Under the pieces are notes generated by a model that saw only the letters and a list, made by a program, of their open reading frames with translations, did not search any database and was not told the DNA's origin. From a virus (taxonomy: Duplodnaviria; Heunggongvirae; Uroviricota; Caudoviricetes), in the IMG/VR virus record IMGVR_UViG_2713896902_000004: a stretch of DNA of 16,021 nt; one strand, given 5' to 3'. Positions 1 through 15,118 of the stretch are shown piece after piece (positions within the stretch are counted from its first letter, which is position 1; every line of letters begins with the position of its first letter). Made by a program: the position numbers and the translations under genes.

Positions 1-159
1 ATGCTGTTTCCTTGCATCATTGATGGGGAGTCTAAAAGACAAACTATATTTGAAGTGATTCATAACGCAATGTTTTTATGTTTAAAAATTGATTTTATTT
101 ACAAGGCGATGGGGGATTGCTGAAAAAATACTTTTACCCAGTTTCGCCAGCAGCTGGCC

Positions 160-423
160 GTGCGCTGGGTTGAAGCGGGTGAAGGCGTATCGCCAATGTG
201 CTTTGCGGAGCTGCTGGCGTTACGCACAGAGACTGACGAACTGCTGGAATGTAAACAGCGTGCGGGTGAAGCGGAATATGGTCCGCGTCGTCCTTTGTTG
301 CATGTGTTTATTAGTACGGAACTGGTGCGCGGTGAGCTCCCTCCCATGTTACCGGATAGCAGGGACGGAGATGCCAGTGAGCTGGATGGGGTGTTGTATC
401 AAACGGTAATGCGCTGGACTTGA
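160..423 (+). CDS. Uncharacterised GC-rich ORF (87 aa from GTG at 160; 75 aa from ATG at 196); possibly a truncated gene remnant
   Basis: Open frame with protein-like composition and host-like GC, followed abruptly by AT-rich DNA at 421. In-frame stop at 121-123 directly upstream. Nearest purine-rich stretch (GAAGG, 181-185) sits about 10 nt before the ATG at 196. No family recognised. Confidence 0.2.
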   Translation: MRWVEAGEGVSPMCFAELLALRTETDELLECKQRAGEAEYGPRRPLLHVFISTELVRGELPPMLPDSRDGDASELDGVLYQTVMRWT

Positions 424-571
424 CACCCTATATTGTTTTATTACTGTATCAGTAGTATTTTCCAAAATAGAATTCGTTGCTAAATTTTTAATTAAGTCAT
501 TTAAACCAATTTCTAATTACAGACTCAAAATTGTGAGTGGTTTGCCATTATAAATAATTTCACATGACAAC

Positions 572-832
572 TTATTTATAGTGATGAGCAATACTGAATA
601 AATCATGATAGTTAAGTGTTTTTTCTATATTCACAGAAATCGTTTCGGATGTCATCGATTCTTGCAGATGATAACCGGTATTTTTTACAAACTCTATCAT
701 TTTACCTCGAGTACTCCCCAGTACGGGATTACCTGCATTCATAGCTTCTATTGCCACCATATAAAATAACTCCTGAAATTTGGATGGAATAATAACTAAA
801 TCAGCCAAATAATAATAGCGATGCCTTTCCAC
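572..832 (-). pseudogene. Truncated group-1 glycosyltransferase remnant (C-terminal part only)
   Basis: Translation contains ...DLVIIPSKFQELFYMVAIEAMNAGNPVLGSTRGKMIEFVKNTGY..., resembling the GT1 C-terminal motif (PS..EgFg..EAMA.G.PV). Only 86 codons are open and there is no room for the roughly 250-aa N-terminal domain before the Tfa gene at 1073. AT-rich region. Confidence 0.45.
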
Positions 833-985
833 AAAAATACACCTCCTAATATATGACGGTATGAACTTGGTTGTTTAAATTATACTTAATTTTTTGAGGT
901 GTTTACATAGTATATGAATATGAGATATCGCATTCTATAAGTGAATGCGATCTATAGCATGGAATAAATAAAAAGGTGTTATAAT

Positions 986-1012
986 AAAAACTGGGTATGA
1001 AACCCAGTTTTT
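986..1012. terminator. Hairpin terminator downstream of the tail operon (usable in both orientations)
   Basis: Perfect 11-bp inverted repeat AAAAACTGGGT / ACCCAGTTTTT with 5-nt loop ATGAA, flanked by A/T runs; lies about 60 nt 3' of the Tfa stop (minus strand). Confidence 0.5.
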
Positions 1013-1072
1013 ATAAATTATATTATGAAAATAACATGGTTATTATGAGTAATATGGTAGTTTCATATAACT

Positions 1073-1630
1073 TTAATAATTATGTGGCATTATTGGCCAA
1101 TTAACATCGGATTTGATATCGAAACTCGTACGATTTAATTGTACACGATATTTTTTTAATCTTGATAAATAAACGATTTCCTCTTCTGTAGCCATATCTA
1201 GATCTACAGCGTCTTGTAAAGGTAATATGATCTCACTTGCTACTTTGAGTAGATTTTCTTTTTCTTTGAGAAATATATTTTCTAGGTCACTAGAACTATA
1301 TTCCTTGGTGATTATTTGTTCGTTTATATATTGATATTTATCTCGAATCATTATATCTTCTGGTAATATATCCGTTTCAATAATATCAAATCCTGCAGGA
1401 TATAGTTTTGAAATGTCTGTAGCTACAGAGCATATAAACTTACTTTCAGGGTGAACACATAGTTTATATTTTTTAGTGAACATTGGGAATGACGTGTAAA
1501 AATCTAATCCATTTTCATCTATGAAGTATTGAACTTCATCTCCATAAGGTTTTTCTTCTGGATAATAGCGAGTTACTTTTGTTAATTTCATTTTGGTATT
1601 CTCATCCTGAAATGGTACGCCACGCACCAT
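1073..1630 (-). CDS. Tail fibre assembly protein (lambda Tfa / P2 gpG-like chaperone)
   Basis: C-terminal ...LLKVASEIILPLQDAVDLDMATEEEIVYLSRLKKYRVQLNRTSFDIKSDVNWPIMP matches the conserved Tfa C-terminal motif. Sits immediately 3' of the fibre gene. The start is ambiguous: the longest ORF starts at 1630 and overlaps the fibre end by 29 nt; the internal ATG at 1589-1591 (MKLTKV...) has an AGGA upstream. Strongly AT-rich. Confidence 0.85.
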   Translation of the reverse strand: MVRGVPFQDENTKMKLTKVTRYYPEEKPYGDEVQYFIDENGLDFYTSFPMFTKKYKLCVHPESKFICSVATDISKLYPAGFDIIETDILPEDIMIRDKYQYINEQIITKEYSSSDLENIFLKEKENLLKVASEIILPLQDAVDLDMATEEEIVYLSRLKKYRVQLNRTSFDIKSDVNWPIMPHNY

Positions 1631-3098
1631 TAATATTTATTTGGACTGGTTTATATCGTACGCATTCCATTTTATCACCGCCGTCAACAAATGTGATTAC
1701 GCATCCAGCGGGGGCTGAAGTAGATGACTGAACTTCTGCTCCTAATTGTATGTTTTGTATATATCGAGCGTCAGATTGAGCTTTGGTATAAATGTTCACA
1801 GTGGTTGCTTTGCTGTTAGCAAGATCAAAAGCTGCCTTCACCGCGCTTGGTGTTGCCGCTTCCGTCGTACTTGTGCTGTTCGTTGCACTATTAAGCTTCA
1901 CAACTCCTTTTTGCGTCAGTGTGGCGTCGGGGATACCAGTGATTTGTCCCCAGGCGTGGGTATGACTTGCTGGTGCAGCCGCAATAGCCTTATCCATTGC
2001 CGCCTTCACCGCGCTCGGTGTCGCAGCTTCCGTTGTGCTGGTGCTGTTTGTGGTACTGTTAAGTTTCACAACTCCTTTTTGCGTCAGCGTGGCGTCGGGG
2101 ATAGCAGTGATTTGTCCCCAGGCGTGGGTATGGCTTGCTGGTGCAGCCGCAATAGCCTTATCCATTGCCGCCTTCACCGCGCTCGGTGTTGCAGCTTCCG
2201 TCGTGCTGGTGCTGTTTGTGGTACTGTTAAGTTTCACAATTCCTTTTTGCGTCAGCGTGGCGTCGGGGATACCAGTGATTTGTCCCCAGGCGTGGGTATG
2301 GCTTGCTGGTGCAGCCGCAGTAGCCTTATCCATTGCTGCCTTCACCGCGCTCGGTGTTGCAGCTTCCGTTGTGCTGGTGCTGTTTGTGGTACTGTTAAGC
2401 TTCACAATCCCTTTCTGCGCCAGCGTACCGTCAGGGATACTGGTTATCTGATTCCAGCCATGAGTATGACTGGTGGCGGCTTTGCTATTTGCCAGGTCAT
2501 ATGCGGTTTTTACTGCTTTTGGTGTGGCCGCTTTGGTTTCATCATCGCTATTAGTTGCATTACTCAGTTGCGTGAAACCTTTCTGCGTCAGTGTTGCATC
2601 AGGATGATTTCGTGATTGCTGATGTGCTTTCAGCGTGTCATCGACATATTCCCTGGTTGCCATAACAACTGAAGGATCTATCAACAGCGTCACCACATCC
2701 GCATTTGTCACTTCCATCACTGCGCGTATAACAATTTGCTTACTGGCACCTGCAGGTAATTGTGGTTTATAGGTTTCAGGGAATTTACCAATAGCGACCA
2801 GCGTGCCGTCGGTATCCAGCAACCCAACTTCGCGAACATACCAGCCTCCAACCTCTTCGGGAATAATCGCTTCTGCGATAACCCAGGCCGGATTATCTGG
2901 CGCAATTTTTAATGTATTGAGCTGACCACGCCAGACCTCATGGACTACTTTGGTCTGGATTTCTGTCGGTTCGATATATTTACCGTTGCCATCGCCAACT
3001 ACCATAGTTTGCAGACGGATCTGTTTTTGCTCCGCCAGTGCTGAGGCAATTTGGGTTTTGCCTGCAGCAGTTAATATTGTAAAAAATTCACTTGCCAT
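1602..3098 (-). CDS. Tail fibre protein (P2 gpH / Mu S-like N-terminus, repeat-containing shaft, divergent C-terminal tip)
   Basis: N-terminus MASEFFTILTAAGKTQIASALAEQKQIRLQTMVVGDGNG...NPAWVIAEAIIPEEVGGWYVREVGLLDTDGTLVAIGKFPETYKP matches the conserved gpH-type baseplate-attachment domain. Shaft has about 4 tandem ~56-aa repeats (SHTHAWGQITGIPDATLTQKGVVKLNSTTNSTSTTEAATPSAVKAAMDKA), the motif typical of side tail fibres. Confidence 0.9.
   Translation of the reverse strand: MASEFFTILTAAGKTQIASALAEQKQIRLQTMVVGDGNGKYIEPTEIQTKVVHEVWRGQLNTLKIAPDNPAWVIAEAIIPEEVGGWYVREVGLLDTDGTLVAIGKFPETYKPQLPAGASKQIVIRAVMEVTNADVVTLLIDPSVVMATREYVDDTLKAHQQSRNHPDATLTQKGFTQLSNATNSDDETKAATPKAVKTAYDLANSKAATSHTHGWNQITSIPDGTLAQKGIVKLNSTTNSTSTTEAATPSAVKAAMDKATAAAPASHTHAWGQITGIPDATLTQKGIVKLNSTTNSTSTTEAATPSAVKAAMDKAIAAAPASHTHAWGQITAIPDATLTQKGVVKLNSTTNSTSTTEAATPSAVKAAMDKAIAAAPASHTHAWGQITGIPDATLTQKGVVKLNSATNSTSTTEAATPSAVKAAFDLANSKATTVNIYTKAQSDARYIQNIQLGAEVQSSTSAPAGCVITFVDGGDKMECVRYKPVQININGAWRTISG
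1840..2530. repeat. Tandem direct repeats, about 168-bp unit, roughly 4 near-identical copies inside the fibre gene
   Basis: Near-identical 168-bp units begin at about 1861, 2029, 2197 and 2365, with more diverged copies on either side. In frame with the fibre ORF; they also create the spurious plus-strand shadow ORFs 1746..2615 and 2035..2451. Confidence 0.85.
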
Positions 3099-3100
3099 TA

Positions 3101-3832
3101 TTACTCCGGGTATACAGACATTATTTCGGTGCTCCAGTATCCTGTACCGATTTTCATCAGTTGGGATTGTGTAAGGCGATCAGGTCGATAAGGTAGTAGT
3201 TGGATATATTCCTCTACACAATAACCTGTCGCTAAAAATATTCTTGATGATTGGCTGATACTTTCTGCAACAGGAGGCAATACTGTAATGATTTCCCCTC
3301 CTTGCATGGCACTGCCAATAACTGGTATTGAGCTTTGATTAATAAGCCAAATAACAATACTTTCCAGTTTTGAACGAACATTTTTATATTCATGAATTAA
3401 TGTGATAAGTGCATTAAATTCATCTTCATTTAACCCTTTTTCCTCTAGTGTAATATCAACCTTAAAAAAATAAGCTTTCCCGCCATATTCAAACCATTCG
3501 GTAATAGTTCCAGGCAATGAGAGTATTTCCAGTACTCGCCGTACCGCCCAAACTGTTCCTTTATATTTATGTAACTCAATGGCTTGCTTAATTAACTCAC
3601 GCTTCTCTTGTTCATCAGTAGTAAATAACCAACCTTCCAGCCCCTGAACGTGGAATTGTTCTGCAAGGGCAGGTAATGCCGAAGCATCAACCAGGTCGAC
3701 CAGGTATATCATTAATGCCGTCAGATCGAGTTGCGCAAAACGTTCGGCGGCGATATTTGCCAGAGTTGAAAAACGCTCATCGCTGGCAAGCGGCGGCGGT
3801 GGCAGCAATTTATCCATCGCTGACTCCGGCAA
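3101..3832 (-). CDS. Baseplate protein gpI-like (P2 gpI / Mu gp48 family)
   Basis: Position between the gpJ-like gene and the fibre gene, size, and overlap with the gpJ gene (23 nt). Family assigned mainly by synteny and general resemblance. Confidence 0.7.
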   Translation of the reverse strand: MPESAMDKLLPPPPLASDERFSTLANIAAERFAQLDLTALMIYLVDLVDASALPALAEQFHVQGLEGWLFTTDEQEKRELIKQAIELHKYKGTVWAVRRVLEILSLPGTITEWFEYGGKAYFFKVDITLEEKGLNEDEFNALITLIHEYKNVRSKLESIVIWLINQSSIPVIGSAMQGGEIITVLPPVAESISQSSRIFLATGYCVEEYIQLLPYRPDRLTQSQLMKIGTGYWSTEIMSVYPE

Positions 3833-4925
3833 TCGTGACGTCTATTACAGTGCATTCCGCCCATTCATGCGCCTGCAAAATACGTTTTGTAGGCATGTTC
3901 AGCACAACGTCATAGACGCCATCGACTTGTAACACTTTGATTATCTGGTTTGGCACAATGTCCTGCCCCAGATGTTTCTGCCGCTGTTGCGTCCAGAGGC
4001 TAATCGCTTTACGCGCCGCAGCCAGTGTTGTCTCCTGATCGGCGGTGGTAAACAGCGTTAGCTGCGCACGAATTTCATACGGCACCCTAAGAGCACATTT
4101 CGCACTTACTTTGTCAGTCAGCGGACGTTTTTTCTCTTTACTCACTTCTTGTTCAATTTGCGCGAGTAGCTCGGTTCCCGGCAGACCATTCAGGGTTAGC
4201 GGGTAGAGCTCGACGCAGCCTTCTGGCAACCCTTCATCTGGCCCCAGTACTGCAACGTCAATAATTGACTGGCTAACCGAAAGTGTATGAAAGCGATATG
4301 CGCCATAGCTGCCGGCATTACTGAAGCTTTCTGGCGCCAGTTGTATACGCTGGCGTAGTGCATCATCGTTCTCTTCACCGCAACCGCCGGTTGTGGGAGT
4401 CAGATTAGTCACGTTGATATCGTAATAACCGATCCTGTCAACAAGGGCGCTAATCTGTGCAGGCTGCCAGCCATTGCCCTGTTCACCTGCTGCGAGGCTG
4501 GTGGCCGGAACGGCGATATGCAAACTCCTGGCCGGAAGCAGAACATCTTCATCGGTGGCGAACATCACGCTGTCAGAGGCACTGGCCCGCGTCCCCTGGG
4601 GAATCAGGATATTGCTGGTATACGCACTGACGACCGAAAACTGCAACGTCGTTTTTGCCGATTGTGCAGGTAAACGGTGAACACCCACCAGCTCCCCTAA
4701 ATAATCCAACATTGGTGCGCGGGAATACGTGACCAGGTTTTGTTTCGCCGCTTCCTGAATGGCGATGCGCACAAGGTTTTCACGATAGGCAAACAGGTCG
4801 ATGAGTAACCGTTCGGCCTGTGCCGGATAGAGTTTTTTACCGCTGGCATCTTCGTATTGCGCAATCATCTCGCTGGTAATTTGCGCAGGATCGCGGTCAA
4901 TAAAATCGGGTTCGGCTATCGCCAT
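3810..4925 (-). CDS. Baseplate wedge protein gpJ-like (Baseplate_J / T4 gp6-like)
   Basis: 371-aa ORF directly after the gpW-like gene with overlapping junction; sequence character typical of Baseplate_J proteins; conserved V-W-J-I-H-G order. Confidence 0.8.
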   Translation of the reverse strand: MAIAEPDFIDRDPAQITSEMIAQYEDASGKKLYPAQAERLLIDLFAYRENLVRIAIQEAAKQNLVTYSRAPMLDYLGELVGVHRLPAQSAKTTLQFSVVSAYTSNILIPQGTRASASDSVMFATDEDVLLPARSLHIAVPATSLAAGEQGNGWQPAQISALVDRIGYYDINVTNLTPTTGGCGEENDDALRQRIQLAPESFSNAGSYGAYRFHTLSVSQSIIDVAVLGPDEGLPEGCVELYPLTLNGLPGTELLAQIEQEVSKEKKRPLTDKVSAKCALRVPYEIRAQLTLFTTADQETTLAAARKAISLWTQQRQKHLGQDIVPNQIIKVLQVDGVYDVVLNMPTKRILQAHEWAECTVIDVTIAGVSDG

Positions 4926-5275
4926 AACACCTCCGTTGAGTTGATTACGCCGTCAGCGGCGCGCCATTGCACACGTAACGTCAGATGTTCACCGTCGATT
5001 ATCGGTGCTACCTTCAGCAACCGACATCGCGGTTCCCACTGGCGGATGGCTTCCACCGACTCCCGTACCACATGCGGGATTGCCCGCTCGATGGGGTAAT
5101 CGATGTAGTGCCACAAGTTGCTGCCAAACAGCGGTCTGTGGGGATCACTGCCGCGCGGCGTGCGCAGAATGATGTGTATTGCCTGGTGAATATCATCCAG
5201 TCCGCAGACGTATTCTTCAGGCCGCTGCAAGGCGGGTTGCCAGTGCAGCGTTGAGGGGCGTGTTTTTGTGTTCAT
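4916..5275 (-). CDS. Baseplate wedge protein gpW-like (GPW/gp25 family)
   Basis: 119 aa; ...DDIHQAIHIILRTPRGSDPHRPLFGSNLWHYIDYPIERAIPHVVRESVEAIRQWEPRCRLLKV... resembles the gp25/GPW family; sits between the V-like and J-like genes. Confidence 0.8.
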   Translation of the reverse strand: MNTKTRPSTLHWQPALQRPEEYVCGLDDIHQAIHIILRTPRGSDPHRPLFGSNLWHYIDYPIERAIPHVVRESVEAIRQWEPRCRLLKVAPIIDGEHLTLRVQWRAADGVINSTEVLWR

Positions 5276-5336
5276 GTGCTTATTTTCGCCCTGAACGGAC
5301 AGTGGGGATATTAAAGCGATTTAGAAAACTGATTGA

Positions 5337-5368
5337 TTAAAAAGAGAAAACCCGCCATCAGGCGGGTT
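5337..5368 (-). terminator. Intrinsic-terminator-like hairpin between the gpV-like and gpW-like genes
   Basis: On the minus strand, 4 nt after the gpV stop: AACCCGCC-TGAT-GGCGGGTT (8-bp GC-rich stem, 4-nt loop) followed by TTTTCTCTTTTT. Confidence 0.5.
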
Positions 5369-5373
5369 AAAAG

Positions 5374-6033
5374 CTAGTGTGAATGGTGATTTGAGTTACC
5401 ACCGCTATCCTGCAATGTGCCGCTGGCCTGAACGTTACCAATCACATTGACATTGCCAGTTATCGTGGCGGCGTTACCGATGCCTCCACTTCCTGCCATG
5501 CCACCCAGCCAGGTGAGTTTTTTCATTACTGTGACGTTACCAGTAAAGGTGCTCATGGGCGCATCTACCGTCACTGTCGCCGCTTTAATATCGACGGTAT
5601 CGGAAGTCACGGTGACCTGTTGGGCTTTAACCTCAACGTTGGGTGATGTCAGGTTAGTATGGTCAATAACCTCAATCACGATTTTCTCAATACCGCCGTT
5701 AATCGTAAGCTGGTGTGTGCTGCGGTCATATTCAAACGCTGCGCCATCAGAAAACTGGACGTAACGTTTATCTCGCGAGGCCACAGGCGCGGTGTCAACC
5801 GTAGAATAAACGGCCCCAAGTACCACGCCATCTTCGCCGTTGTCGTCCAGCAGAACTTCCACCTGCTCACCCATATCCGGTAGCCAGTAGTCTTTATTGT
5901 CCTGGGAATTACGTTGAAGTACCGCAAGCCAGTTACTCTTCAGATTGTCGCACTCTGGCAGTGTGACTCGCACCCGAACGCTGGTTTCGTCAATATCGCT
6001 GATAATCCCCGTTTGCCGGGTTACTCCCTTCAT
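5374..6033 (-). CDS. Baseplate central spike protein gpV-like (P2 gpV / Mu gp45 family)
   Basis: 219 aa; N-terminal OB-fold-like region (…NGEDGVVLGAVYS…) and a C-terminal Gly/Val/Asn-rich beta-helix-like region (GNVTVMKK…GNVNVIGNVQASGTL) typical of spike proteins; follows the gpD-like hub gene. Confidence 0.8.
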   Translation of the reverse strand: MKGVTRQTGIISDIDETSVRVRVTLPECDNLKSNWLAVLQRNSQDNKDYWLPDMGEQVEVLLDDNGEDGVVLGAVYSTVDTAPVASRDKRYVQFSDGAAFEYDRSTHQLTINGGIEKIVIEVIDHTNLTSPNVEVKAQQVTVTSDTVDIKAATVTVDAPMSTFTGNVTVMKKLTWLGGMAGSGGIGNAATITGNVNVIGNVQASGTLQDSGGNSNHHSH

Positions 6034-6042
6034 AGTGCCTCC

Positions 6043-7083
6043 TTACTGGCTGGTTGCTGGCCCGCGCGAAACGTCGATTTCAGTGGTATAGCCGCTGCGC
6101 ACAAAACTGTGAGTAGATTTATCAATCAGCCATTGTCCAGAAAGAATACCAAAATCAATGAGTTCGATTTTATTGCCTGCTGTCAGTTCCGGGCAGCCCA
6201 TCATCCTGAGTGTTCCGGTTTGCTGATATTCGTTGTGGCTGTCGAGTGCAGCGTTGGCCTTTGCCTGTGCCGCGCCAACATCCGTCGCCCGGCTGTTGAG
6301 TTTCAACGTGTCGGCACTGGTGCCGACTCCACGGGCTGACGGTTTTTGCTGGCTGTCGTGAGTGTAGATAACCAGTTCTTTTTTCTTACTATTTTGATGC
6401 TGTACGGTGGCGTTCTTGTAGATGCGATTAATGGTGTCTTTGAAGGTAAAGTGCGAAACCTCTTTACGGTCGATGGTTTTCACTGGCGCCAGGCAGCGTA
6501 GTGTCGGCAGATGTGAAAAAATCAGCTCTTTTGTCGTCACTTTCACGGCATAGCCATATTCGCTGGCCAGACGCTTGAGAAATCCAACATCGGTTTCGCC
6601 GTACTGTGTCACCCGGTCAATCGCCAGTGGCTCGATTTTGCCCACCAGCTTCAGACCGTGAGTTTGCGCGATACGACTGGCGATGGCCGAAAGCGTCGTT
6701 TCTTCAAAGCCCTGACTGTTACGGGTACGCAGCGCCTGATTGACGGAAGTGGCAATGCCATCAATATTTACCGTGGAAGGTGGTGCTGAAATATCAATTT
6801 TATCAATAACATACTGACCGCAATCGAGGAGCGTCTCCCCCTGATAACCCATATGTAGCGCCAGCGTATCGCCTTTGCCGGGATACCACTCTTTTATCCA
6901 ACGTCCATCGGTGTCATCCAGTGTAATGGCGATGGTATCTGACTCGTTTTTGATGCTGTCGTGGTAACTGATGCTGGTGACATAGGGCGTGATGTCATAA
7001 GTGATATCTTTATGCCCATACCAAAGGGTAAAAATGGGCGCGAGTGTGGCAAAGACGCCACCAGATACGCTTATCTCAGCCAT
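6043..7083 (-). CDS. Baseplate hub protein gpD-like (P2 late control gene D / Mu gp44 / VgrG-N family)
   Basis: 346 aa with the family character (…SDTIAITLDDTDGRW…PGKGDTLALHMGYQGETLLDCGQYVIDKIDISAPP…); conserved position after the gpX-like gene. Confidence 0.8.
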   Translation of the reverse strand: MAEISVSGGVFATLAPIFTLWYGHKDITYDITPYVTSISYHDSIKNESDTIAITLDDTDGRWIKEWYPGKGDTLALHMGYQGETLLDCGQYVIDKIDISAPPSTVNIDGIATSVNQALRTRNSQGFEETTLSAIASRIAQTHGLKLVGKIEPLAIDRVTQYGETDVGFLKRLASEYGYAVKVTTKELIFSHLPTLRCLAPVKTIDRKEVSHFTFKDTINRIYKNATVQHQNSKKKELVIYTHDSQQKPSARGVGTSADTLKLNSRATDVGAAQAKANAALDSHNEYQQTGTLRMMGCPELTAGNKIELIDFGILSGQWLIDKSTHSFVRSGYTTEIDVSRGPATSQ

Positions 7084-7283
7084 GGTGGTATCTCCGATAA
7101 GGTTTTGTTGACGGAAATGACCGGAATAATGAGTTGAATACCGGAAGGCAGTACCGGGTAAATGGCGACATGTGGATTGGCGGCGATGATGCGTTCATAA
7201 GCCAGCGCATCGCCGTAGTAATACCATGCCAGATTATCCCAGCGTTCGCCGTCGGTGGTGATATGTTCAAGGTATCGCATCAC
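7071..7283 (-). CDS. Tail protein X-like (P2 gpX, LysM-like baseplate protein)
   Basis: 70 aa; TTDGERWDNLAWYYYGDALAYERIIAANPHVAIYPVLPSGIQLIIP parallels the gpX pattern (T..GDTLD.I..RYYG…VL.ANP…LP.G..V.LP). ATGA overlap with the upstream gene. Confidence 0.7.
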   Translation of the reverse strand: MMRYLEHITTDGERWDNLAWYYYGDALAYERIIAANPHVAIYPVLPSGIQLIIPVISVNKTLSEIPPWLR

Positions 7284-8233
7284 CAGCTCCTCGTAATGGT
7301 CGCGGCAGCAAGCTGGCTCACTGCGGGAGTGGTTTGTTGTACCGTTGTTCGTGCCTGCTCAACCAACGTTGCGGCTTTATCGAACGTCGCTTCGGCGATG
7401 TCGTTGGTAATGTCGTCGAAAAGCGCCTGAGCATGGTCAACCAGCGTGCTGGCGTCTTTGGCGCAGTCCCGGATACCTGGCATGTTACCCAGTAAAGCGT
7501 TAATCTGCGCCGATAACGCTTTTGGGAGTCCTGCCAGCGTTTGCAGATCCATGGGCTGTTTAAACAGGGTTTCGATGGCGTCGATAGTCTTTTTCAACGA
7601 CGTAATTATCTTTTCACACTTTTCTTTTAACGCTTTGGCCTCTTTAACCAGTGCTTTCACTTTTGCCACCGTTTTTTTAATATCTTCAATGGCTTGAGTC
7701 AGCTCATCGAGCATCTCTTTGGCCTTACGCATACCTTCTTCAATGGCGTTCAATATCTGATCAAACCAGGACTCCACCATGTCTGGAAAATCGCTCGCCT
7801 TTTCGTCAATATTCGGGTCTTGGGTAGTAATTGCCGGGGGCAAGAGTGGATTTTTAGGATCACCGGTGTACTCCTGGAGCGACATTGTTCCGCTTTGAGC
7901 AATCACATTGCCCCAGGGATCGGTGTGCTGGTGGGTGGCGGTTAGCTCCGTAATCACAAACCAGCCGCGATAATCGCCATTGCCAAACACCAGAGCCATC
8001 GCTTTGTGGGCAAGCATGCCTTCACGCAGTCGATTCAGCTCTGTTGTGGGTTGGCAAAACTGGCTGTGCAAGGAAAATTCCAGTGCCAGCATATCCAGCT
8101 TATCGCCAATAAACTGCACGCCGGGTTTGCCTTCTATACGGGCATGTGTGGCGTAGTCCACGCCCATTGTGCTTTTAAAGCCGTCCCAGAATGTGACAAC
8201 CTTAAATTCAATCTCTCCTAAAACGGCATACAT
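7280..8233 (-). CDS. gpU-like tail/baseplate protein with a long alpha-helical, coiled-coil-like C-terminal extension
   Basis: The first ~120 aa loosely resemble P2 gpU-type tail proteins, and the gene sits in the gpU position (TMP-U-X-D). The C-terminal ~180 aa are rich in A/K/E/L heptad-like sequence. Start overlaps the TMP stop by 1 nt. Confidence 0.5.
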   Translation of the reverse strand: MYAVLGEIEFKVVTFWDGFKSTMGVDYATHARIEGKPGVQFIGDKLDMLALEFSLHSQFCQPTTELNRLREGMLAHKAMALVFGNGDYRGWFVITELTATHQHTDPWGNVIAQSGTMSLQEYTGDPKNPLLPPAITTQDPNIDEKASDFPDMVESWFDQILNAIEEGMRKAKEMLDELTQAIEDIKKTVAKVKALVKEAKALKEKCEKIITSLKKTIDAIETLFKQPMDLQTLAGLPKALSAQINALLGNMPGIRDCAKDASTLVDHAQALFDDITNDIAEATFDKAATLVEQARTTVQQTTPAVSQLAAATITRSW

Positions 8234-10608
8234 CAGGCATACCCCCGGCGCTGTTGTTGCGCCATTACGTCGTTAATCATTCTTTCCAGTTCGCGTTTAC
8301 TTATCGTCAACACGTTCTGAATGTCTTTAGTGGTGTTTTGTCCGTTACTCTGCACGGTAATTTGTGGCGAAAAATTCACCTGAACTTTTCCAGAGGAACG
8401 GGAGGGTAGCGTCGCCGGTTTGGTTACAGATTTACCAGGTAAAGAGGCCGATGCGGGTTTGGCTGCTGTATTTTTTGCCGCTGGTGTCGATGGCGACGTT
8501 GTCGTTTTACTGGATGGCGCGAGTTGTTTGCCCACAGGAGGCGTTAAAATCGCTCCGGCAACGCCTGGAACAACGGTCGTGGGGGAGATTGATGCGGTAT
8601 TCGTCGTGCTTGTAACAGCCGTAGCCGATCCTTCTGTGCTAATACCCATCGTGGTTTTTAGCCAGTCCGGTAAGGCGTTTTTGACCTGATCAATAATGCC
8701 TTTCAGAGCGGGGAAAGCATTCATTATGCCGTCAACCAGACTGCCCAGAAGATTGCTGCCGAACTCGCTAAAACTTGCAGGCATCTCGATACCAAACCAA
8801 TTCATCACACTGGAAAAGGCGCTGTAGAACAACTCCAGCGGCGACCAGTCGAGAATTAACCGGCAAATCCCTGCAATGCCGCCGTCAAAGGCCGTGGTGA
8901 TACGTTGCCAGATGGCGGAAAAGAATCTGGAGATAGGTTCCCAGTGGCGATAGATCAGATAAGCAGCGCCCGCAATCGCGGTGATGACCAGACCAATGGG
9001 ATTCATCAATAAAACTCTACCCAACCAGAAGACGGTCTGACCTGCCAGTTTCAATGCGCCAATCAGGCCACGGCCAAGCAGTTGCGTTAGCCATTTTGCG
9101 CCGTTATATAATGACTTAACCGCTGATAGCATCTTACTTGCCGCGCCTGTGAGCGTCAGACTTGCCCTGACTTTCAGGAAGATATCGACCAGACGAATAA
9201 ACGGCGAGGCGATGACGTTCGCGCCCAGCTTTAAAACATTCAGTGCGCCGTTAAACAGCCAAATCGCTCCGACGATTTTCGCAATGTTTTGCACCAGCGC
9301 CGGGTGTTCACGTAGCCAGGCGCTGAACTGGCGAATCACCGGAGTAAGGCTTTGCGCCAACTCGCCAATCAGCGGCATTAATTGCAAGCCAATGCTGAGC
9401 CATAAATCATTTAACGCCAGTTGTAACGTTTTAGTTTGTTCAATGGGCGAGGCCATCTGCACAGAAAAATCGTTGTCAATCATATTCTTACCGCTGTCTT
9501 GCATGGCGGAGGCTTTTAACTGGCGATACTCTTCCATATTCGCCAGCACAGGTGCCAGGAATTCCACTGTTTGCGCATCGCCGAACATTTCGCCCAGATT
9601 AAATTGCGTCACCATCGATTGCAGTGCGTTGCTGCGAGCAGATAAATCTTCAATTTGCATGGTGCGTTTGAAGGTGTCGAGGATCGCCGGATTCATCTTC
9701 TCAAGTTGCGTTTGCACGATATGAATCATGGCTTCGCTAACACCCATGCCGTTTTGCTGATGTTCAAGCAGAGAGCCTTGCAGATCGACGCCCTGGCTGA
9801 CGAACCAGTTATCGGTTTTTTTCGAAAAGATGGTTTGCAGAAAGTGGTCGAAATTCTCCGCCGCCACACTGGCGCTGGCACCATTTTTCATTGCGATCTG
9901 CATTGTGGCGGTCAGTTCAGCCATACCTTCTAAACCCTGTGCGCCAGTTTTAACTGCAAATTTGTCTATCCACTGCGCTTGCCCGGCAACGGTAGGCCCA
10001 CCGTTTTTGCTAATGCCGTACATCATGTTTTGCGCGGCGTGGAAATTTTCTGGCGCAATATTCAGTCGATCATGAGTCGCGAGCGCGGCATTCGCCCATG
10101 TTTCAGCACTTTCGCGCGTGGTGGTGGCTGCTTTGGCGATCTCCGGCATATAACGGTTGAGATCCTGCATCGACGACAAATTACCTTCGATTAGCACCTG
10201 GGCTGCGTTCTGTAAGGTGGTCTGCTGCTGGTTAAAATCCATACTCCAGTCGCGCAGATTAAGGCTGAGTGTCTCGCGGGTTGTATCATTCATCCCACCT
10301 TTGGTCGCCAAATTGACCATGTTGTCCTGAAACTCATACGGCAACTTCCAGTCAGGGACTTCAACATTGAATACTTTGCTAAATTGCCCGGCAAATGTTT
10401 GGGTTTTCTCCATCAGATCAGCGCGGTTTCGGCTATTTTCCTCCAGGCGGAGAGCGGAATCGGCAAGTTGCTGCGTTAGTTTGATTACTGCCGCTTGCTG
10501 AGAAGAGAGTGCTAACAATGTTCTGGCGTTGAGTGAGCCGTAACGGGCTATTGCCTGCGTCAACGTCTCATTACGCGTCTGAAGCTGGGTAATAATATCG
10601 TTGGCCAA
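8233..10608 (-). CDS. Tail tape measure protein
   Basis: 791 aa, largest gene of the module, directly after the chaperone gene; alpha-helical N-terminal half, several hydrophobic segments in the middle, Ser/Thr/Pro-rich low-complexity C-terminal region. Annotated start is TTG with AAGAGA upstream. Confidence 0.8.
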   Translation of the reverse strand: MANDIITQLQTRNETLTQAIARYGSLNARTLLALSSQQAAVIKLTQQLADSALRLEENSRNRADLMEKTQTFAGQFSKVFNVEVPDWKLPYEFQDNMVNLATKGGMNDTTRETLSLNLRDWSMDFNQQQTTLQNAAQVLIEGNLSSMQDLNRYMPEIAKAATTTRESAETWANAALATHDRLNIAPENFHAAQNMMYGISKNGGPTVAGQAQWIDKFAVKTGAQGLEGMAELTATMQIAMKNGASASVAAENFDHFLQTIFSKKTDNWFVSQGVDLQGSLLEHQQNGMGVSEAMIHIVQTQLEKMNPAILDTFKRTMQIEDLSARSNALQSMVTQFNLGEMFGDAQTVEFLAPVLANMEEYRQLKASAMQDSGKNMIDNDFSVQMASPIEQTKTLQLALNDLWLSIGLQLMPLIGELAQSLTPVIRQFSAWLREHPALVQNIAKIVGAIWLFNGALNVLKLGANVIASPFIRLVDIFLKVRASLTLTGAASKMLSAVKSLYNGAKWLTQLLGRGLIGALKLAGQTVFWLGRVLLMNPIGLVITAIAGAAYLIYRHWEPISRFFSAIWQRITTAFDGGIAGICRLILDWSPLELFYSAFSSVMNWFGIEMPASFSEFGSNLLGSLVDGIMNAFPALKGIIDQVKNALPDWLKTTMGISTEGSATAVTSTTNTASISPTTVVPGVAGAILTPPVGKQLAPSSKTTTSPSTPAAKNTAAKPASASLPGKSVTKPATLPSRSSGKVQVNFSPQITVQSNGQNTTKDIQNVLTISKRELERMINDVMAQQQRRGYA

Positions 10609-10708
10609 AATTGTTTCTCTTATAGATTGGTGATGGCCCGCTGGTTAGTTTTCTGAAAAATGGGCTGGGAAGAAATAAACCTGGCGAGCTTTGAAGAACT
10701 CGCAGACA

Positions 10709-10930
10709 TCAGGTCTGCGAGTCATATTCGATTTTTATTTGAGCGCTGGCTTCATCCAGCCAGTGACTAAAGTCATCTATCGTGAGCGAGTCAATCTCAC
10801 TGGGTGGAAAGCGAAACCATCTCGCCAGTAGCGCCATTGCCTGCCATAGCAAGGGGGGATTCTGTAGCCACGGTAAGCATGGATTGAAATCGTTTCTGCA
10901 ACGCCTGGTAATCCAGCAAATCCATTTCAG
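10709..10930 (-). other. Open +1-frame window overlapping the 3' end of the chaperone gene; candidate programmed-frameshift extension (gpE'-like)
   Basis: Relative to the chaperone frame, the +1 frame is open from 10930 to a TGA at 10709-10711, running about 29 codons past the chaperone stop (…FPPSEIDSLTIDDFSHWLDEASAQIKIEYDSQT). A C6 run (10853-10858; TCC CCC CTT in frame 0, CCC CCC TTG in +1) is a possible slip site. The -1 frame closes 8 codons after the chaperone stop. Confidence 0.35.
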
Positions 10931-11114
10931 CTAAATCTTCTGGTACCAGCCCGGTCATCGCTGCCATTAGCGGTTCATCCCATTCTTCCGGCTTTTCGCT
11001 GACCCGGCGTGCATTACGCATATCTTTGACTTTCAGGCGACGTAATTGTAGCGTGTCGATATTATTTCCTGCTGCCGACGTAAAGGGAAACTGTAAGATA
11101 TAATGCTCTTTCAT
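10797..11114 (-). CDS. Tail assembly chaperone (P2 gpE-like)
   Basis: 105 aa between the tube and tape-measure genes; …LQLRRLKVKDMRNARRV…LMAAMTGLVPEDLAEMDLLDYQALQKRF… resembles the gpE family; AAGGA Shine-Dalgarno upstream. Confidence 0.7.
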   Translation of the reverse strand: MKEHYILQFPFTSAAGNNIDTLQLRRLKVKDMRNARRVSEKPEEWDEPLMAAMTGLVPEDLAEMDLLDYQALQKRFQSMLTVATESPLAMAGNGATGEMVSLSTQ

Positions 11115-11140
11115 TTTGTATCCTTATTTATTTTTCGGAG

Positions 11141-11160
11141 TTCGGGGCCGTAGCCCCGAA
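11141..11160 (-). other. GC-rich intercistronic stem-loop between the tube and chaperone genes
   Basis: TTCGGGGC-CGTA-GCCCCGAA, perfect 8-bp stem with 4-nt loop, starting 4 nt after the tube stop; no U-tract follows on the minus strand. Confidence 0.4.
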
Positions 11161-11164
11161 TAAC

Positions 11165-11689
11165 TTAGCCACCGATGTTATTGCGATAGGTACTTAATTG
11201 ATCCACGCCGTTAACGCGGAAAATATTCGCCATATAATCCAGTTCAAGCAGCGTTTCACCATCGACTACTTGTTTAATATAAGTGCAGCCAAAGGCGCTG
11301 CTGAATTCCGGGTTTTCATTCTGTTTAAATGTGCCCAGTGGATTTTTTTTAAACATCACGGTTAAATGTGTGACTAACGCTAATTGATTCGCTTTCCCCT
11401 GAGAGTTATAACAATCGATACTGGAGCGACACTGTAATGCTACAGCCTGCCACGGGTTTGCCGTTTTACGCATTACGTCCTGGTAAAAGGAGTTCCATTT
11501 AATTTCCCCCTCCAGTTTATCGAAACCAGCCGGGAGTTCTATTTTACCCACCATGCCCAGTGCTTTATGTTCCTGCATAATTAAACTGACATCTGGCAAT
11601 TTAATTTCTGTTGCACGGCCTAAAAGATTATTACCATCGAGATAAATATTGGCGTTGGTAATACGGTTAATTTGAATTTTTCCAGCCAT
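11165..11689 (-). CDS. Tail tube protein (P2 FII-like)
   Basis: 174 aa immediately after the sheath gene with a 1-nt overlap; size and sequence character of contractile-tail tube proteins. Confidence 0.8.
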   Translation of the reverse strand: MAGKIQINRITNANIYLDGNNLLGRATEIKLPDVSLIMQEHKALGMVGKIELPAGFDKLEGEIKWNSFYQDVMRKTANPWQAVALQCRSSIDCYNSQGKANQLALVTHLTVMFKKNPLGTFKQNENPEFSSAFGCTYIKQVVDGETLLELDYMANIFRVNGVDQLSTYRNNIGG

Positions 11690-13116
11690 TAGCGATTGCT
11701 CTCCAGAGAGACTAAATATTCAGAGGTAATTTCAGTTTCAAACGTCAGACGTTCCAGCGGCGGCGGTGGGGTAAATTTATAGCTGAGCAATAAATGCCCG
11801 GCACTGAGTTCAGCCGGTGAATTTCGCGCCGGATCGTACCAGCACTCAAAGCCAAGCAGTGCGCCGTCGGCAATCAGTTTTCGGCCCCAGGTATTTACCG
11901 ATTCGGTCAGCGCGTCAATCAGTGCCTGATTGATCGGCATATCAATATACTGTTGACTGAAATAACGGATTGACTCATTAATTACATCGCCTGTCCGGCG
12001 AACGTTTTCAAAGTTACGCATATGAGTCACGGTTGGCCATGCCGCTGTGCGGTTGCCCCACAGGCGCAGACCAGAACCATAACTATTGAAAATAGTGGTA
12101 ATACCGTTTTCGTTGAGCTGATTCACTTCGCTTTGTGGATCATCAATCATTGCGGAAAGCGAACGTTCGATACCGGTAATACCCTGAATTTCCTGGTTTG
12201 AGTTGCTCCACCAGAAACCTTTTTCGAGGTCTACTTTGGCACGTAGCCCGGCAGCGCGCGAAGAGAGAGGTTCAAGAATTTCCTGGTTAGTGATGCCATC
12301 GTAAACTTTGACGTGTGGGTAGCATAAACGTGCACGATCAGAGCTGGTATTGAAGTTGATTGCGCCTTGCGAACCGCGTCCAGCCAATACCTGCTGGAAT
12401 GTAGTCCCAATTGGGGCATCAATGTAGGTAATCGCACCGAGTTTTTCCGCTTGTGCAATCAGCTCGGTAGTCACTGATTTTTGCGTACAAAAAACGGGTG
12501 CCAGCAGAATTTTGGCGTAGAAACCATACAAGTTATAAGTGTCCTGAAGGAGCCTCATCCCCGTGCGATCGCCTGCGGTATTAACGGCCCCGATAATATC
12601 GGCTGCGGTGACCTTTGTAGGGTCAACATAGGTATAAGTCGCGTAAACCTTTGCTCCTGCCGCAATTTCAGTTCCTGTACGGGTAATAACGCCGTCAGCG
12701 GCATTAACGCTGTATGATGTATTTTTGTATGTAGTGGAACTGATACTTGCTCTTAGCGTTACCGAACTTACCCCCGGATGAGTTAATTTAGCTTTATCGT
12801 CACTATTGAACGTAATGGTTTCATTGGTAATGTGTAGTCCATGTTTTACTGGATCCAGCACATTAATTACCACCACTGTACCGGCACCGTGATCATAAAT
12901 CGCCTTCAGCGCCTGCGGGATCGTAAAGTTAGCCTGAGTCGATCCAAACTGTGCCGCGTCACTTTCAGAAAGGCACAGCGTCGGTTGGTTTACCGGGCCA
13001 CAGGGAGCGGTACCGATTAAAGCGATTACAGCAGATTTTACTGCTTTTACCGGACGCGGGCCGGTTTCAATTTCAATGGTTTCTACACCGTGCAGATAAT
13101 TAGCTGCCATGTACAA
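11689..13116 (-). CDS. Tail sheath protein
   Basis: 475 aa; C-terminal conserved sheath motif (…GSGLRLWGNRTAAWP…); followed by tube gene with overlapping stop/start. Confidence 0.9.
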   Translation of the reverse strand: MYMAANYLHGVETIEIETGPRPVKAVKSAVIALIGTAPCGPVNQPTLCLSESDAAQFGSTQANFTIPQALKAIYDHGAGTVVVINVLDPVKHGLHITNETITFNSDDKAKLTHPGVSSVTLRASISSTTYKNTSYSVNAADGVITRTGTEIAAGAKVYATYTYVDPTKVTAADIIGAVNTAGDRTGMRLLQDTYNLYGFYAKILLAPVFCTQKSVTTELIAQAEKLGAITYIDAPIGTTFQQVLAGRGSQGAINFNTSSDRARLCYPHVKVYDGITNQEILEPLSSRAAGLRAKVDLEKGFWWSNSNQEIQGITGIERSLSAMIDDPQSEVNQLNENGITTIFNSYGSGLRLWGNRTAAWPTVTHMRNFENVRRTGDVINESIRYFSQQYIDMPINQALIDALTESVNTWGRKLIADGALLGFECWYDPARNSPAELSAGHLLLSYKFTPPPPLERLTFETEITSEYLVSLESNR

Positions 13117-13297
13117 TTTCCTCTACGTTATTTTGTTCTTCCTGGGGAATGATGAGAATCAAGTGATTTCGGGCAATCATGGTCATAACCCACTCATTGT
13201 CTTCTGGCAGATCAATTTCACTGTTCGGCCATAATAAGATTTCTTGACCGTCGGCAAGGGTGACGCCGCTTGCCGGACCGTTGTAGATATATTTCAT
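13100..13297 (-). CDS. Small conserved phage protein preceding the sheath gene (Mu gp38/DUF2635-like by position)
   Basis: 65 aa; ATGA overlap with the upstream gene and 17-nt overlap with the sheath start; assignment by position and size only. Confidence 0.35.
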   Translation of the reverse strand: MKYIYNGPASGVTLADGQEILLWPNSEIDLPEDNEWVMTMIARNHLILIIPQEEQNNVEEIVHGS

Positions 13298-13749
13298 TCA
13301 GTTTCCTCGTAATTAACTTCAGTAAGCAGGGGAAGATCCGTGCTGTCCTGTTCAGCGATAAACAGCGAGCTGGTCGCCATTTCCAGGATGTAGCGGCAGA
13401 AACCGTCGCTCTCACCCGTATTAATTTCTTTTTCAAGCCAAATAAGATGATCGCAATCAGGAGGCTGAAGGCCTCCCAATGCGCTGCGTATGTGATCAAG
13501 TGCGTTTAACGCATCACAATTTTTGCCAACAATAACGGTGGCGGTTAAGCGGAGTATTTGCTGTTGTACAATGGCATCACTACTTTCGGGCGTGGTGAAG
13601 ACAGAACCGCTATAATTAATAATCACCGTAATCTGTTGTGTCTGTGGAATATATTTTTGGGCATCCGTAGATGAAATGAATATGTCCATTTCAGGATGCC
13701 GATCACGTAATCTGACCACGACATAATTCATTACAGATAAAATTTTCAT
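13294..13749 (-). CDS. Putative tail completion/terminator protein (Mu gp37-like by position)
   Basis: 151 aa, first gene of the tail block after the terminator at 13855-13891; coupled to the next gene by an ATGA overlap; assignment by synteny. Confidence 0.4.
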   Translation of the reverse strand: MKILSVMNYVVVRLRDRHPEMDIFISSTDAQKYIPQTQQITVIINYSGSVFTTPESSDAIVQQQILRLTATVIVGKNCDALNALDHIRSALGGLQPPDCDHLIWLEKEINTGESDGFCRYILEMATSSLFIAEQDSTDLPLLTEVNYEETE

Positions 13750-13854
13750 ATGAGGTGTACCTTAATTACCGCTCACTTCGTTATCGTTGAAATGTATTCT
13801 GAAGCAGTGAGAGTGAAGAATCTTTTAATGTGATTTAGAGAAAAAATTGAATGG

Positions 13855-13891
13855 TTATAAAAAATCCCCACACTTACGTAAAGGTGGGGAT
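13855..13891 (-). terminator. Intrinsic terminator after the lysis cassette
   Basis: On the minus strand, 4 nt after the stop of the 104-aa gene: ATCCCCAC…GTGGGGAT (8-bp stem with a partly self-pairing 12-nt loop) followed by TTTTTTATAA. Confidence 0.55.
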
Positions 13892-13895
13892 GTAT

Positions 13896-14210
13896 TTAAT
13901 AACTGCCACGTTGTAATAACTCTATTTTGCTATATAAGGCATCCAGCTTTGCTTCTAATACTGCTTGTCCACGAAGATAATCCTCTCTGCGGACATAATA
14001 CAGTGGAAGTTCGGCACGAAATTCGAGAAATTCTCTTTCCAGTTTCGACCAGCTTGTTTCTGATTCCCTGCGGGCATTTTCCAGGGACTCAAAACGCTCA
14101 TTAAGTCTTTTTTCAATTTGCGCTAACAGCAATTTTCCGGCAGCAAACATTAATCCAACGAATGAAAGCATAAAGGAGATCACTTCCCAAAAATCGATAC
14201 TGAGTTTCAT
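13896..14210 (-). CDS. Membrane-anchored coiled-coil protein, possible i-spanin (Rz-like) or lysis accessory protein
   Basis: 104 aa; N-terminal hydrophobic helix (ISFMLSFVGLMFAAGKLLLAQI) followed by a charged helical region; immediately after the transglycosylase gene. Confidence 0.4.
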   Translation of the reverse strand: MKLSIDFWEVISFMLSFVGLMFAAGKLLLAQIEKRLNERFESLENARRESETSWSKLEREFLEFRAELPLYYVRREDYLRGQAVLEAKLDALYSKIELLQRGSY

Positions 14211-14222
14211 CGGCCCCTCTGA

Positions 14223-14828
14223 TTAGTGAAGACAGCTTGCCTGTCCCCAGAGTAAGTAGCGGGCGGCGTGTTGATAGAGAATCATCTTCGGATAGTGACG
14301 ATTTTCTCGCCAGTTTGCGGCGCTGCGCCCGGCGTTGACTTGCTCAACATGACCAAACCAGATGGCGGCATTTAACCCTTTTGTTGTCGCCAGTTTTTTA
14401 TCCCGGTTAATCCAACCCTGACCACCGTTATAGGCGCTTAGAGTAAACGCCATACGTTGACAATCATTTTTTGCAGAGATGTTGTTCCATAAATGCTGGT
14501 CGTACTGTACCAACGCCCGGATTGCCCAGGTTGGGTTATACGGTTTGTTTTCATGTAGCTGTGGATACAGTTGGCTTATCCATGTCGCTGTGGCAGGCAT
14601 AAATTGCGCCATACCTTGTGCGCCAACGGGGGAACGTACCATTGGCTGCCAGGCGGACTCCTGGTGTAATTGCCCGGCAAAGTCAGCCACAGGAGCGTTC
14701 AGTCCCCAGACTTCTCGGGCGGTACGAATCAATTCATTTCTCCATGCCAGAGAGGCTTGTGGTGGTTCAGACGCATTAAGCGGGAAAAGAACGAAAATAA
14801 TCATAGGCGCGATATATTTTAGCCACAT
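14223..14828 (-). CDS. Lytic transglycosylase (SLT-domain endolysin candidate) with N-terminal signal peptide
   Basis: SLT catalytic motifs: …QLHQESAWQ… (catalytic Glu-Ser), …GAQGMAQFMPATA…, …AYNGGQGW…. The longest ORF runs to 14927 but the likely start is the ATG at 14826-14828 (MWLKYIAPMIIFVLFPLNA, Sec-type signal peptide), 2 nt after the upstream stop. Confidence 0.85.
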   Translation of the reverse strand: MWLKYIAPMIIFVLFPLNASEPPQASLAWRNELIRTAREVWGLNAPVADFAGQLHQESAWQPMVRSPVGAQGMAQFMPATATWISQLYPQLHENKPYNPTWAIRALVQYDQHLWNNISAKNDCQRMAFTLSAYNGGQGWINRDKKLATTKGLNAAIWFGHVEQVNAGRSAANWRENRHYPKMILYQHAARYLLWGQASCLH

Positions 14829-14830
14829 CA

Positions 14831-15118
14831 CTATAGCCCTAACGCGACGGAAAGGCAGACTGCAGCCACGATGATGGCGCGACGAATCATTGCCGCTGCG
14901 TAGCAACGCGGTTCCTTCCTGGGGCAAAAAAAGTCAGGCCGTGCCCAGGGGAACAAACTACGATCGAGCCAGTATCCCAGCACTGCGGAAAGTGAAACCA
15001 GGCTTAGTTTATAAATGACGACCGGAATTTGTGCTGAAGATGTCCAGCCGATCAATGCAATCAGAGCAATGGCTGCAGCCAGCCAACCGGAAAGACGGGG
15101 AAAAGTGATTTTTTTCAT
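14831..15118 (-). CDS. Holin-like small membrane protein
   Basis: 95 aa with 2-3 predicted transmembrane helices; strong AGGAG 8 nt upstream of the ATG; first gene of the lysis cassette, tightly coupled to the transglycosylase gene. Function by position only. Confidence 0.4.
   Translation of the reverse strand: MKKITFPRLSGWLAAAIALIALIGWTSSAQIPVVIYKLSLVSLSAVLGYWLDRSLFPWARPDFFCPRKEPRCYAAAMIRRAIIVAAVCLSVALGL

Follow-up and report, generated by a model that had tools for sequence, protein, structure and literature searches.

Whole-unit variation of a near-identical 168-bp tandem array in the tail fibre gene of a putative Escherichia tailocin cluster

Background

The IMG/VR record IMGVR_UViG_2713896902_000004 (Caudoviricetes) is a stretch of 16,021 nucleotides, hereafter the window, which carries on its minus strand a tail fibre gene whose central part consists of 168-bp tandem repeats that are nearly identical at the DNA level. 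The locus raises the question of whether the number of these repeats changes by recombination, so that the length of the encoded fibre changes with it, or whether the repeats are better explained by another role, or their recorded number by the difficulty of assembling such DNA. Below we describe the array, trace its unit number through related genes, and weigh the explanations that may account for the pattern. We find that related strains and species carry between three and six modules, and we consider it very probable that the array is the shaft of a trimeric fibre, in which misaligned recombination or slippage changes the number of whole units.

Results and discussion

An in-frame array of 168-bp units

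Tandem Repeats Finder (TRF) reports a sole array in the window (Table 1), with a period of 168, 3.6 copies, 93% matches, a score of 1032 and no indels, and a repeat search of the window places successive copies 168, 168 and 168 nt apart. The 168-bp array is confirmed as real, well beyond chance. In the fibre protein it belongs to a series of five in-register units of 56 amino acids (aa), U1 to U5, which start at residues 166, 222, 278, 334 and 390. Each unit holds one Phage_fiber_2 repeat (PF03406, the profile of which is 42 residues long), and the profile finds five stretches in the fibre at E 1.6e-83 and 274.5 bits (cutoff 22). The motif SHTHxW, and hence a histidine-x-histidine (HxH) element, is present in addition in four units, U1-U4; in an alignment of 12 diverse units, the unit residues S45, H46, H48 and W50 are invariant.

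The units are not equally alike. U2, U3 and U4 form a near-identical family, with 156-163 of 168 nt (93-97% of the DNA) and 52-54 of 56 residues identical in pairwise comparison, whereas U1 shares only 97-100 of 168 nt (~58%) and 32-34 of 56 residues with the other units. U5 resembles U4 over its first ~100 nt, which encode the Phage_fiber_2 core, and its remainder passes into the tip. The position of U1 is conserved across Escherichia species, and 53 of its 56 residues are those of the first unit of E. fergusonii. A preliminary description of this DNA had counted about four almost perfect in-frame copies of a 56-aa motif, extending to position 2530. The frame and the 56-aa unit stand, but the copies amount to three full ones plus a partial one of ~0.6, another being diverged, and since the TRF array ends at 2440, the earlier limit overshoots by ~90 nt into U1.

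Among U2-U4 there are 14 variable sites, nine of which lie at codon position 3 of the minus frame. Two long open reading frames (ORFs) on the plus strand (1746-2615, 289 aa; 2035-2451, 138 aa) were considered as coding and rejected, given that they have no family matches and that the third-position variation fits the minus frame; they are artefacts that arise because the repeat has no stops in that frame.

Unit number varies in whole steps among relatives

Repeat counts in relatives were taken from the protein database and from exact-protein look-ups; a genome-contig scan gave six loci, none of them of E. albertii or E. coli, and was not used for the counts. The fibre protein of the window is an exact match to an Escherichia albertii 'tail fiber protein' (UPI0007439411), and the exact 498-aa sequence is present on 16 contigs, the largest of 4,700,965 bp. 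A second E. albertii allele, P0001, encodes 554 aa and is longer by a single 168-nt unit, which lies between U2 and U3, directly upstream of U3 in the gene; this allele occurs in 37 contig-index blocks, eight of them with contigs >1 Mb. The DNA that P0001 shares with the window gene is identical throughout (663/663 nt ahead of the array, 330/330 nt in the terminal part and 168/168 nt in every shared unit). Whichever of 111 consecutive positions is chosen for the removal of 168 nt from P0001, the result is exactly the window allele, so that the indel is bounded by a perfect in-register repeat of 110 nt.

The extra unit of P0001 is a mosaic of its neighbouring units with a private base, its private bases being recognised by the ...GCTACTGCGGCAGCACC... 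version in combination with GCTGCGACACC and AGTCAT. Given this mosaic and its private base, loss of the unit would require one event and its gain several, which favours the direction from six units to five. Most simply, the five-unit allele of the window would therefore have arisen from the six-unit E. albertii allele by one deletion in the 110-nt perfect repeat. The five-unit allele should then be the more stable of the two, because the longest in-register perfect tract falls to 56 nt after the deletion, and 56 nt is indeed the longest such tract in the window.

This difference between two alleles is part of a wider pattern. Among the top 120 homologues of the fibre protein, the lengths within every class defined by a common N-terminus and tip rise in a ladder of whole units, and unit cores are spaced by 56 aa in 305 of 404 cases. 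Salmonella proteins with a 'WRTISG' tip have 386, 442 or 493 aa and three, four or five units; the step from 386 to 442 is exactly 56 aa, while the next step, to 493 aa, lacks 5 aa, since the first unit of that form is a variant of only 51 aa (51-aa spacing). Escherichia proteins with a 'SWYTVGQL' tip have 442, 498 or 554 aa (four, five or six units), and E. albertii proteins with a collar-type tip have 526 or 582 aa (three or four units), a 638-aa member being longer by another 56 aa. In the 386-aa Salmonella proteins the first unit is a hybrid, its front corresponding to u1 and its back to u2 of the 442-aa proteins, which is what unequal crossover should produce, and these alleles are found on 128 contigs of up to 4.65 Mb. 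In Superficieibacter and Lelliottia the related fibres have just one unit, and on the sequences compared the multiplication of units is confined to the lineages of Escherichia and Salmonella.

The one-unit difference at the 110-nt tract, the whole-unit ladders and the hybrid units bear out the earlier expectation that recombination alters the copy number of this array, and across related loci the repeat number is anything but invariant. Moreover, this variation, taken overall, cannot be put down to short-read artefacts, because steps of the ladders lie on chromosome-scale contigs (526 aa on contigs of 5.0 and 4.85 Mb, 582 aa on one of 4.84 Mb, 554 aa on eight contigs >1 Mb, and 498 aa on one of 4.70 Mb).

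Repeat DNA of this kind is also present on a 400-bp contig of 0.7x coverage in the assembly of a myxobacterium, Corallococcus (L005 1-400), which is 92% identical to the fibre repeats and is almost certainly enterobacterial contamination.

Age and homogenisation of the copies

Paralogous units within the window (U2-U4) differ at 3-7 of 56 codons synonymously, and orthologous units (U1 and U2, window, representing E. albertii, versus E. coli) at 13-19 of 56; in the N-terminal domain, 22 of 165 codons differ synonymously between E. albertii and E. coli. Because paralogous units thus differ at fewer synonymous codons than orthologous ones, the near-identity of the copies in E. albertii points to recent duplication or homogenisation, as opposed to strong selection on the DNA sequence. 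The two internal units in E. coli are only 83% identical.

Exchange of tips within the array

A further kind of variation is associated with the same repeats. The E. albertii locus carries at least three tips (GAWRTISG, SWYTVGQL and collar/FNYIVRLA), each accompanied by its own chaperone, which is of the Caudo_TAP family for the GAWRTISG tip and of the DUF4376 type for the SWYTVGQL and collar tips. Counted from the start codon, alleles with the other tips remain near-identical to the window as far as nt ~1122 for the collar tip and nt ~1230 for the SWYTVGQL tip, whereupon they diverge inside a unit (tip loci compared: L018 4001-6453, L019 4001-6318 and window 1073-1811), and E. coli orthologues align to the window gene (90%) only as far as nt 953, inside U3. 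As these divergence points fall inside the array, they indicate that the repeat DNA also acts as a junction for the swapping of cassettes of receptor-binding tip and chaperone, foreign cassettes being joined at the same conserved repeat DNA. Recombination at conserved motifs is documented for the fibres of T-even phages (PMC3157838, citing Tetart 1996, 1998).

A potential explanation for the array is consequently that its repeats are maintained as a homology 'adapter' for such cassettes, changes in copy number being a neutral by-product and length tuning not their main role. The three tip types at one locus, the near-identity upstream and the position of the divergence points in both species all agree with this proposal, as does the precedent of the T-even fibres, and it is the strongest of the alternatives, if still rather less likely than not. 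A single conserved unit would suffice for an adapter, yet Escherichia and Salmonella keep three to six of them where Superficieibacter and Lelliottia have one. Furthermore, the roles of adapter and of length tuning are compatible and do not exclude each other.

Assembly of the array and the reality of five units

The warning given in the preliminary description that these repeats would complicate assembly has proved well founded, in that drafts of E. albertii genomes break in the array and leave partial proteins at contig ends. Many E. albertii fibre proteins are recorded as 'partial', with N-terminal fragments that stop at residues 232, 243, 245, 260, 265, 269, 293 and 316, that is, in U2-U3 at the ends of contigs, and with C-terminal fragments that begin inside a unit. 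It is therefore pertinent to ask whether the count of five units in the window is itself an artefact of assembly, the genome in reality having six, if a short-read de Bruijn assembler with k <110 skipped the loop formed by the 110-nt repeat.

Skipping of the loop would give exactly the window sequence, namely the six-unit allele minus one register in the 110-nt repeat, and 15 of the 16 contigs with the five-unit allele are shorter than 200 kb. The flanking DNA is also relevant here. Over 8 kb downstream there are two haplotypes, ~20 single nucleotide polymorphisms (SNPs) apart, and both the five- and the six-unit state occur on each; L009 (six units, complete genome CP099877.1) and L015 (five units, draft) are sister haplotypes with common private SNPs, and L010 and L013, both drafts from one project, are likewise sister haplotypes that differ in unit number. 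Assemblies with five units include GCA_027568095.1, GCA_025802815.1, GCA_001514925.1 and GCA_001514725.1, and their six-unit sister strains include GCA_024532115.1 and GCA_027567015.1. Since the states are scattered over haplotypes in this way, either the same deletion has occurred at least two to three times, or assemblers with k <110 have skipped the loop.

However, the five-unit allele is also found on the 4.70-Mb contig, and its share of contigs >1 Mb (1/16) is not significantly different from that of the six-unit allele (8/37; Fisher p = 0.25). In addition, it comes from independent projects, the assemblers of which probably differed to judge by the accession series, and reads of at least 150 nt span a 110-nt repeat. 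Tandem repeats in E. coli are unstable, and a deletion between direct repeats of ~100 nt is likely to be commoner than a single SNP in 16 kb, for which reason recurrent real deletions are plausible given the 110-nt perfect tract. On balance we regard an artefactual count in the window as unlikely, although part of the difference between five and six units in E. albertii could be collapse by assemblers.

By contrast, an on/off (contingency) switch of the fibre through phase variation, which might be suspected of a highly repetitive and recombination-prone tract in a gene for surface recognition, is extremely improbable and is rejected because all variants are in frame: the unit of 168 nt is 3 x 56, TRF finds no indels, every variant observed is in frame and of full length, and the window has neither an invertase nor a short homopolymeric tract.

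Proposed working of the shaft

Under the favoured interpretation, that of a repeat-built shaft with a variable number of units, the fibre would consist of a P2-gpH-type N-terminus on the baseplate, five 56-aa shaft modules and a Mu-gpS-like tip that is folded with the aid of a gpU-like chaperone. Fibres of phage Mu are trimeric, dock on the wedge protein gp48 and bind lipopolysaccharide (LPS) (PMC11915804); by analogy with Mu, the N-terminus of the fibre trimer may dock on the gpI-like wedge protein and the tip may bind LPS. Three HxH motifs together form an octahedral Fe site in the fibres of R-pyocins and in the shaft of T4 gp37, where these sites have been proposed as registration points for folding, and shafts built of repeats are considered to let fibre length be adjusted (PMC6116203). 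If the present fibre likewise forms a trimer and binds metal, as these analogies suggest, each HxH element would contribute to a buried six-histidine metal (iron) site, each unit would supply one shaft segment with one such site, and the number of units would presumably set the length of the fibre and the reach of its tip.

With a DNA identity of 93-97% between internal modules, whole 168-bp units could be gained or lost by misaligned homologous recombination or by replication slippage, and because whole units are exchanged the reading frame would be kept and the protein would change in steps of 56 aa. The pathway may be RecA-dependent or may be slippage.

Several observations weigh against this interpretation. 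The five- or six-unit state does not track the flanking haplotypes in E. albertii, as described above, and no seven-unit allele was seen among the homologues listed, although unequal exchange should yield gains as well as losses. An AlphaFold2 model of the monomer, built on a 15-sequence alignment, has a mean predicted local distance difference test score (pLDDT) of 36 and a predicted template modelling score (pTM) of 0.28 and was not used for fold or length, and a profile search of the PDB with the 56-aa unit returned only Mu gpS 111-150, and no solved protein with the whole unit and its HxH. Finally, the orthologous fibre is a pseudogene in several complete E. coli genomes, two of which have the gene so annotated (L002 4001-5239; L017 10828-12793), one of these with a frameshift in gpI as well, and the apparatus is therefore not maintained in every lineage. 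A literature search found nothing specific on tandem-repeat copy number and fibre length in tail fibres, and the paper on the RBPseg atlas has nothing on this repeat.

Architecture of the fibre and its chaperone

Outside the array, the fibre combines parts with different affinities (Table 1). Residues 1-235 are 46-48% identical to protein H of Wphi and protein K of 186, both P2-like phages, and the N-terminal domain probably docks the fibre on the baseplate, by analogy with the gp49/gp48 structure of Mu (PMC11915804). At the other end, residues 440-496 align to residues 434-501 of Mu gpS (5yvq); this stretch on its own is a weak match (i-E 0.87), the whole protein reaching E 1.3e-9 (phmmer), and the motifs SDARY..LG, AP(A/S)G.VIT and PVQ.NING.W are common to the tip and Mu gpS. 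The product of the gene downstream matches Mu gpU (5yvq_B) over its residues 22-182 at E 2.4e-11. Given the Pfam matches of the N-terminus and repeats, the alignment of the tip to Mu S and the gpU homology of the chaperone, the fibre is, as far as homology can tell, a mosaic in which a P2-H-like N-terminus is followed by a repeat shaft and the shaft by a Mu-S-like tip, which has its own chaperone. Read from its first ATG, the chaperone ORF overlaps the 3' end of the fibre gene by 29 nt (1602-1630); other annotations place the start 39 nt later, which gives 172 aa. Homologues of gpI (Tail_P2_I), gpJ (Baseplate_J), gpW (GPW_gp25), gpV and gpD lie upstream of the fibre gene, and Caudo_TAP downstream (Pfam). 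The fibre gene has no megablast match among 50,697 phage records, where its relatives are found at the protein level only.

Just downstream of the chaperone gene, at 572-832 on the minus strand, lies an 86-aa fragment of a family-4 glycosyltransferase (Pfam GT4-conflict / Glycos_transf_1). Related E. albertii loci have an intact glycosyltransferase of 380 aa further along (L009 11440-12582), which is split in some strains.

Table 1 Features of the tail fibre gene, its repeat array and the adjacent chaperone gene in the window
Feature	Positions	Strand	Evidence
Tail fibre gene, 498 aa	1602..3098	-	ORF; Pfam Phage_tail_fib E 8e-58 and 5 x Phage_fiber_2 E 1.6e-83
N-terminal domain, aa 1-149, P2 gpH-type	2652..3098	-	PF12571
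U1, aa 166-221, diverged Phage_fiber_2 unit with SHTHGW	2436..2603	-	
HxH motif 1, His211-Thr-His213	2460..2468	-	Regular expression on translation
Near-identical 168-bp tandem array	1834..2440	-	TRF; perfect in-register (+168) tracts 23-56 nt
U2, aa 222-277, near-identical family	2268..2435	-	156-157/168 nt vs U3/U4
HxH motif 2, His267-Thr-His269	2292..2300	-	Regular expression on translation
U3, aa 278-333, near-identical family	2100..2267	-	163/168 nt vs U4
HxH motif 3, His323-Thr-His325	2124..2132	-	Regular expression on translation
U4, aa 334-389, near-identical family	1932..2099	-	Unit alignment
HxH motif 4, His379-Thr-His381	1956..1964	-	Regular expression on translation
U5, aa 390-445, Phage_fiber_2 core then tip lead-in, without HxH	1764..1931	-	
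C-terminal tip, aa ~430-498, probably related to C-terminal receptor-binding end of Mu S	1602..1811	-	phmmer
Tail fibre assembly chaperone, Mu gpU type	1073..1630	-	Pfam Caudo_TAP E 1.5e-20

Comparison with known systems

Features of this kind are well known, from the Pfam repeat family, from HxH fibres, from the duplications of His boxes in T4 gp37 and from motif-mediated exchange. The closest parallels are the PF03406 fibres (the P2 gpH, 186 K, Mu S and lambda Stf type), with which the window fibre shares the PF03406 repeats and the PF12571 N-terminus. It differs from them in that the repeat is set within a longer 56-aa unit that includes HxH, and in the DNA identity of 93-97% among its internal units; with respect to P2 gpH in particular, it ends in a small Mu-S-like tip and not in the tip of gpH.

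The fibre of Mu, formed by gp49 (S) with gp50 (U) (PDB 5YVQ, 9KI1, 8JU3), is similar in its Phage_fiber_2 core (S 111-150) and, more weakly, in the motifs of its tip, and the window chaperone is homologous to Mu gpU over its whole length and is encoded directly downstream of the fibre gene. However, Mu S has a single repeat core without tandem HxH units, and the N-terminus of the window fibre is of the P2 type. Whereas Mu switches tips by inversion of its G segment, the window contains neither an invertase nor an inverted second tip: downstream of the chaperone gene, which ends at 1073, neither an ORF for a Gin-type invertase nor a second, inverted tip and chaperone was found, only glycosyltransferase fragments.

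T4 gp37 also has HxH repeated along its chain, in a trimer that is known for T4 and is suggested here by analogy. The two proteins have no detectable sequence homology (the PDB search matched Mu S only), and while short His boxes flank variable segments in T4, the window fibre has a long and regular 56-aa module. The R-type pyocin fibre (PA0620) shares an HxH Fe site in the shaft (PMC6116203), but its irregular helix-plus-turn repeats are not visible in the sequence. With R-pyocins and carotovoricin Er (ctv), the window has in common a gene cluster for a predicted head-less contractile tail together with a lysis cassette. Carotovoricin switches its fibres by DNA inversion.

Genomic context and implications

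The window, from position 1 to 16021, contains regulatory, lysis and tail genes only, encoding Mor, a holin, an SLT transglycosylase, Gp37, sheath, tube, a chaperone, the tape measure, gpU-like protein, X, D, V, W, J, I, the fibre and its chaperone. The carotovoricin cluster of Pectobacterium has been reported to be BcepMu-like (PMC10991766), and the sheath protein of the window is 70% identical to gp39 of BcepMu. In E. coli NCTC9699 the orthologous cluster (L017 9001-25005) is flanked by lysC on one side and yjbD/rluF on the other; it has no genes for a head, an integrase, a transposase or replication, and nothing else there is phage-like. At least 80% of the window is present at ~91% identity in 184 of 5,426 complete E. 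coli genomes, as a chromosomal element. The window is thus probably a domesticated R-type tailocin of the BcepMu/carotovoricin type; we found no literature on a named tailocin at this Escherichia locus.

A more far-reaching proposal is that the cluster is a chromosomally fixed R-type tailocin of Escherichia and Salmonella in which the array serves as a fast and recurrent switch of fibre length. We put this forward tentatively, as a doubtful possibility. Were it correct, near-identical E. albertii lineages would have undergone independent deletions from six units to five, driven by the 110-nt perfect repeat, and the array would tune the reach of the tip through the O-antigen or capsule layers of competitors, alongside the exchange of tip cassettes in the array. 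Whether the 110-nt tract drives recurrent changes of fibre length in a tailocin is, in our view, the most interesting point of this locus. The current understanding is unchanged by our results, as fibres made of repeats, and the recombination of fibre genes at conserved motifs, are already established.

The array nonetheless has practical consequences, because the target range of a phage or tailocin is set by its fibres. Its alleles constitute a natural length series of three to six modules with a common N-terminus and tip, of use for relating shaft length to adsorption or killing and for engineered fibres, and the array shows the site at which tip cassettes are exchanged. Draft genomes are unreliable at the array, since contigs break there and unit counts may be collapsed, and the repeat number in short-read assemblies should not be relied on for fibre-based typing or for the prediction of host range.

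Two minor observations concern the tape measure gene of the cluster. In the window, the C-terminal ~120 aa of its product (8233-8600, minus strand) are a long low-complexity stretch rich in Ser, Thr, Pro and Ala, and in one E. albertii draft the gene is split into parts of 316 and 475 aa (L011 499-2866).

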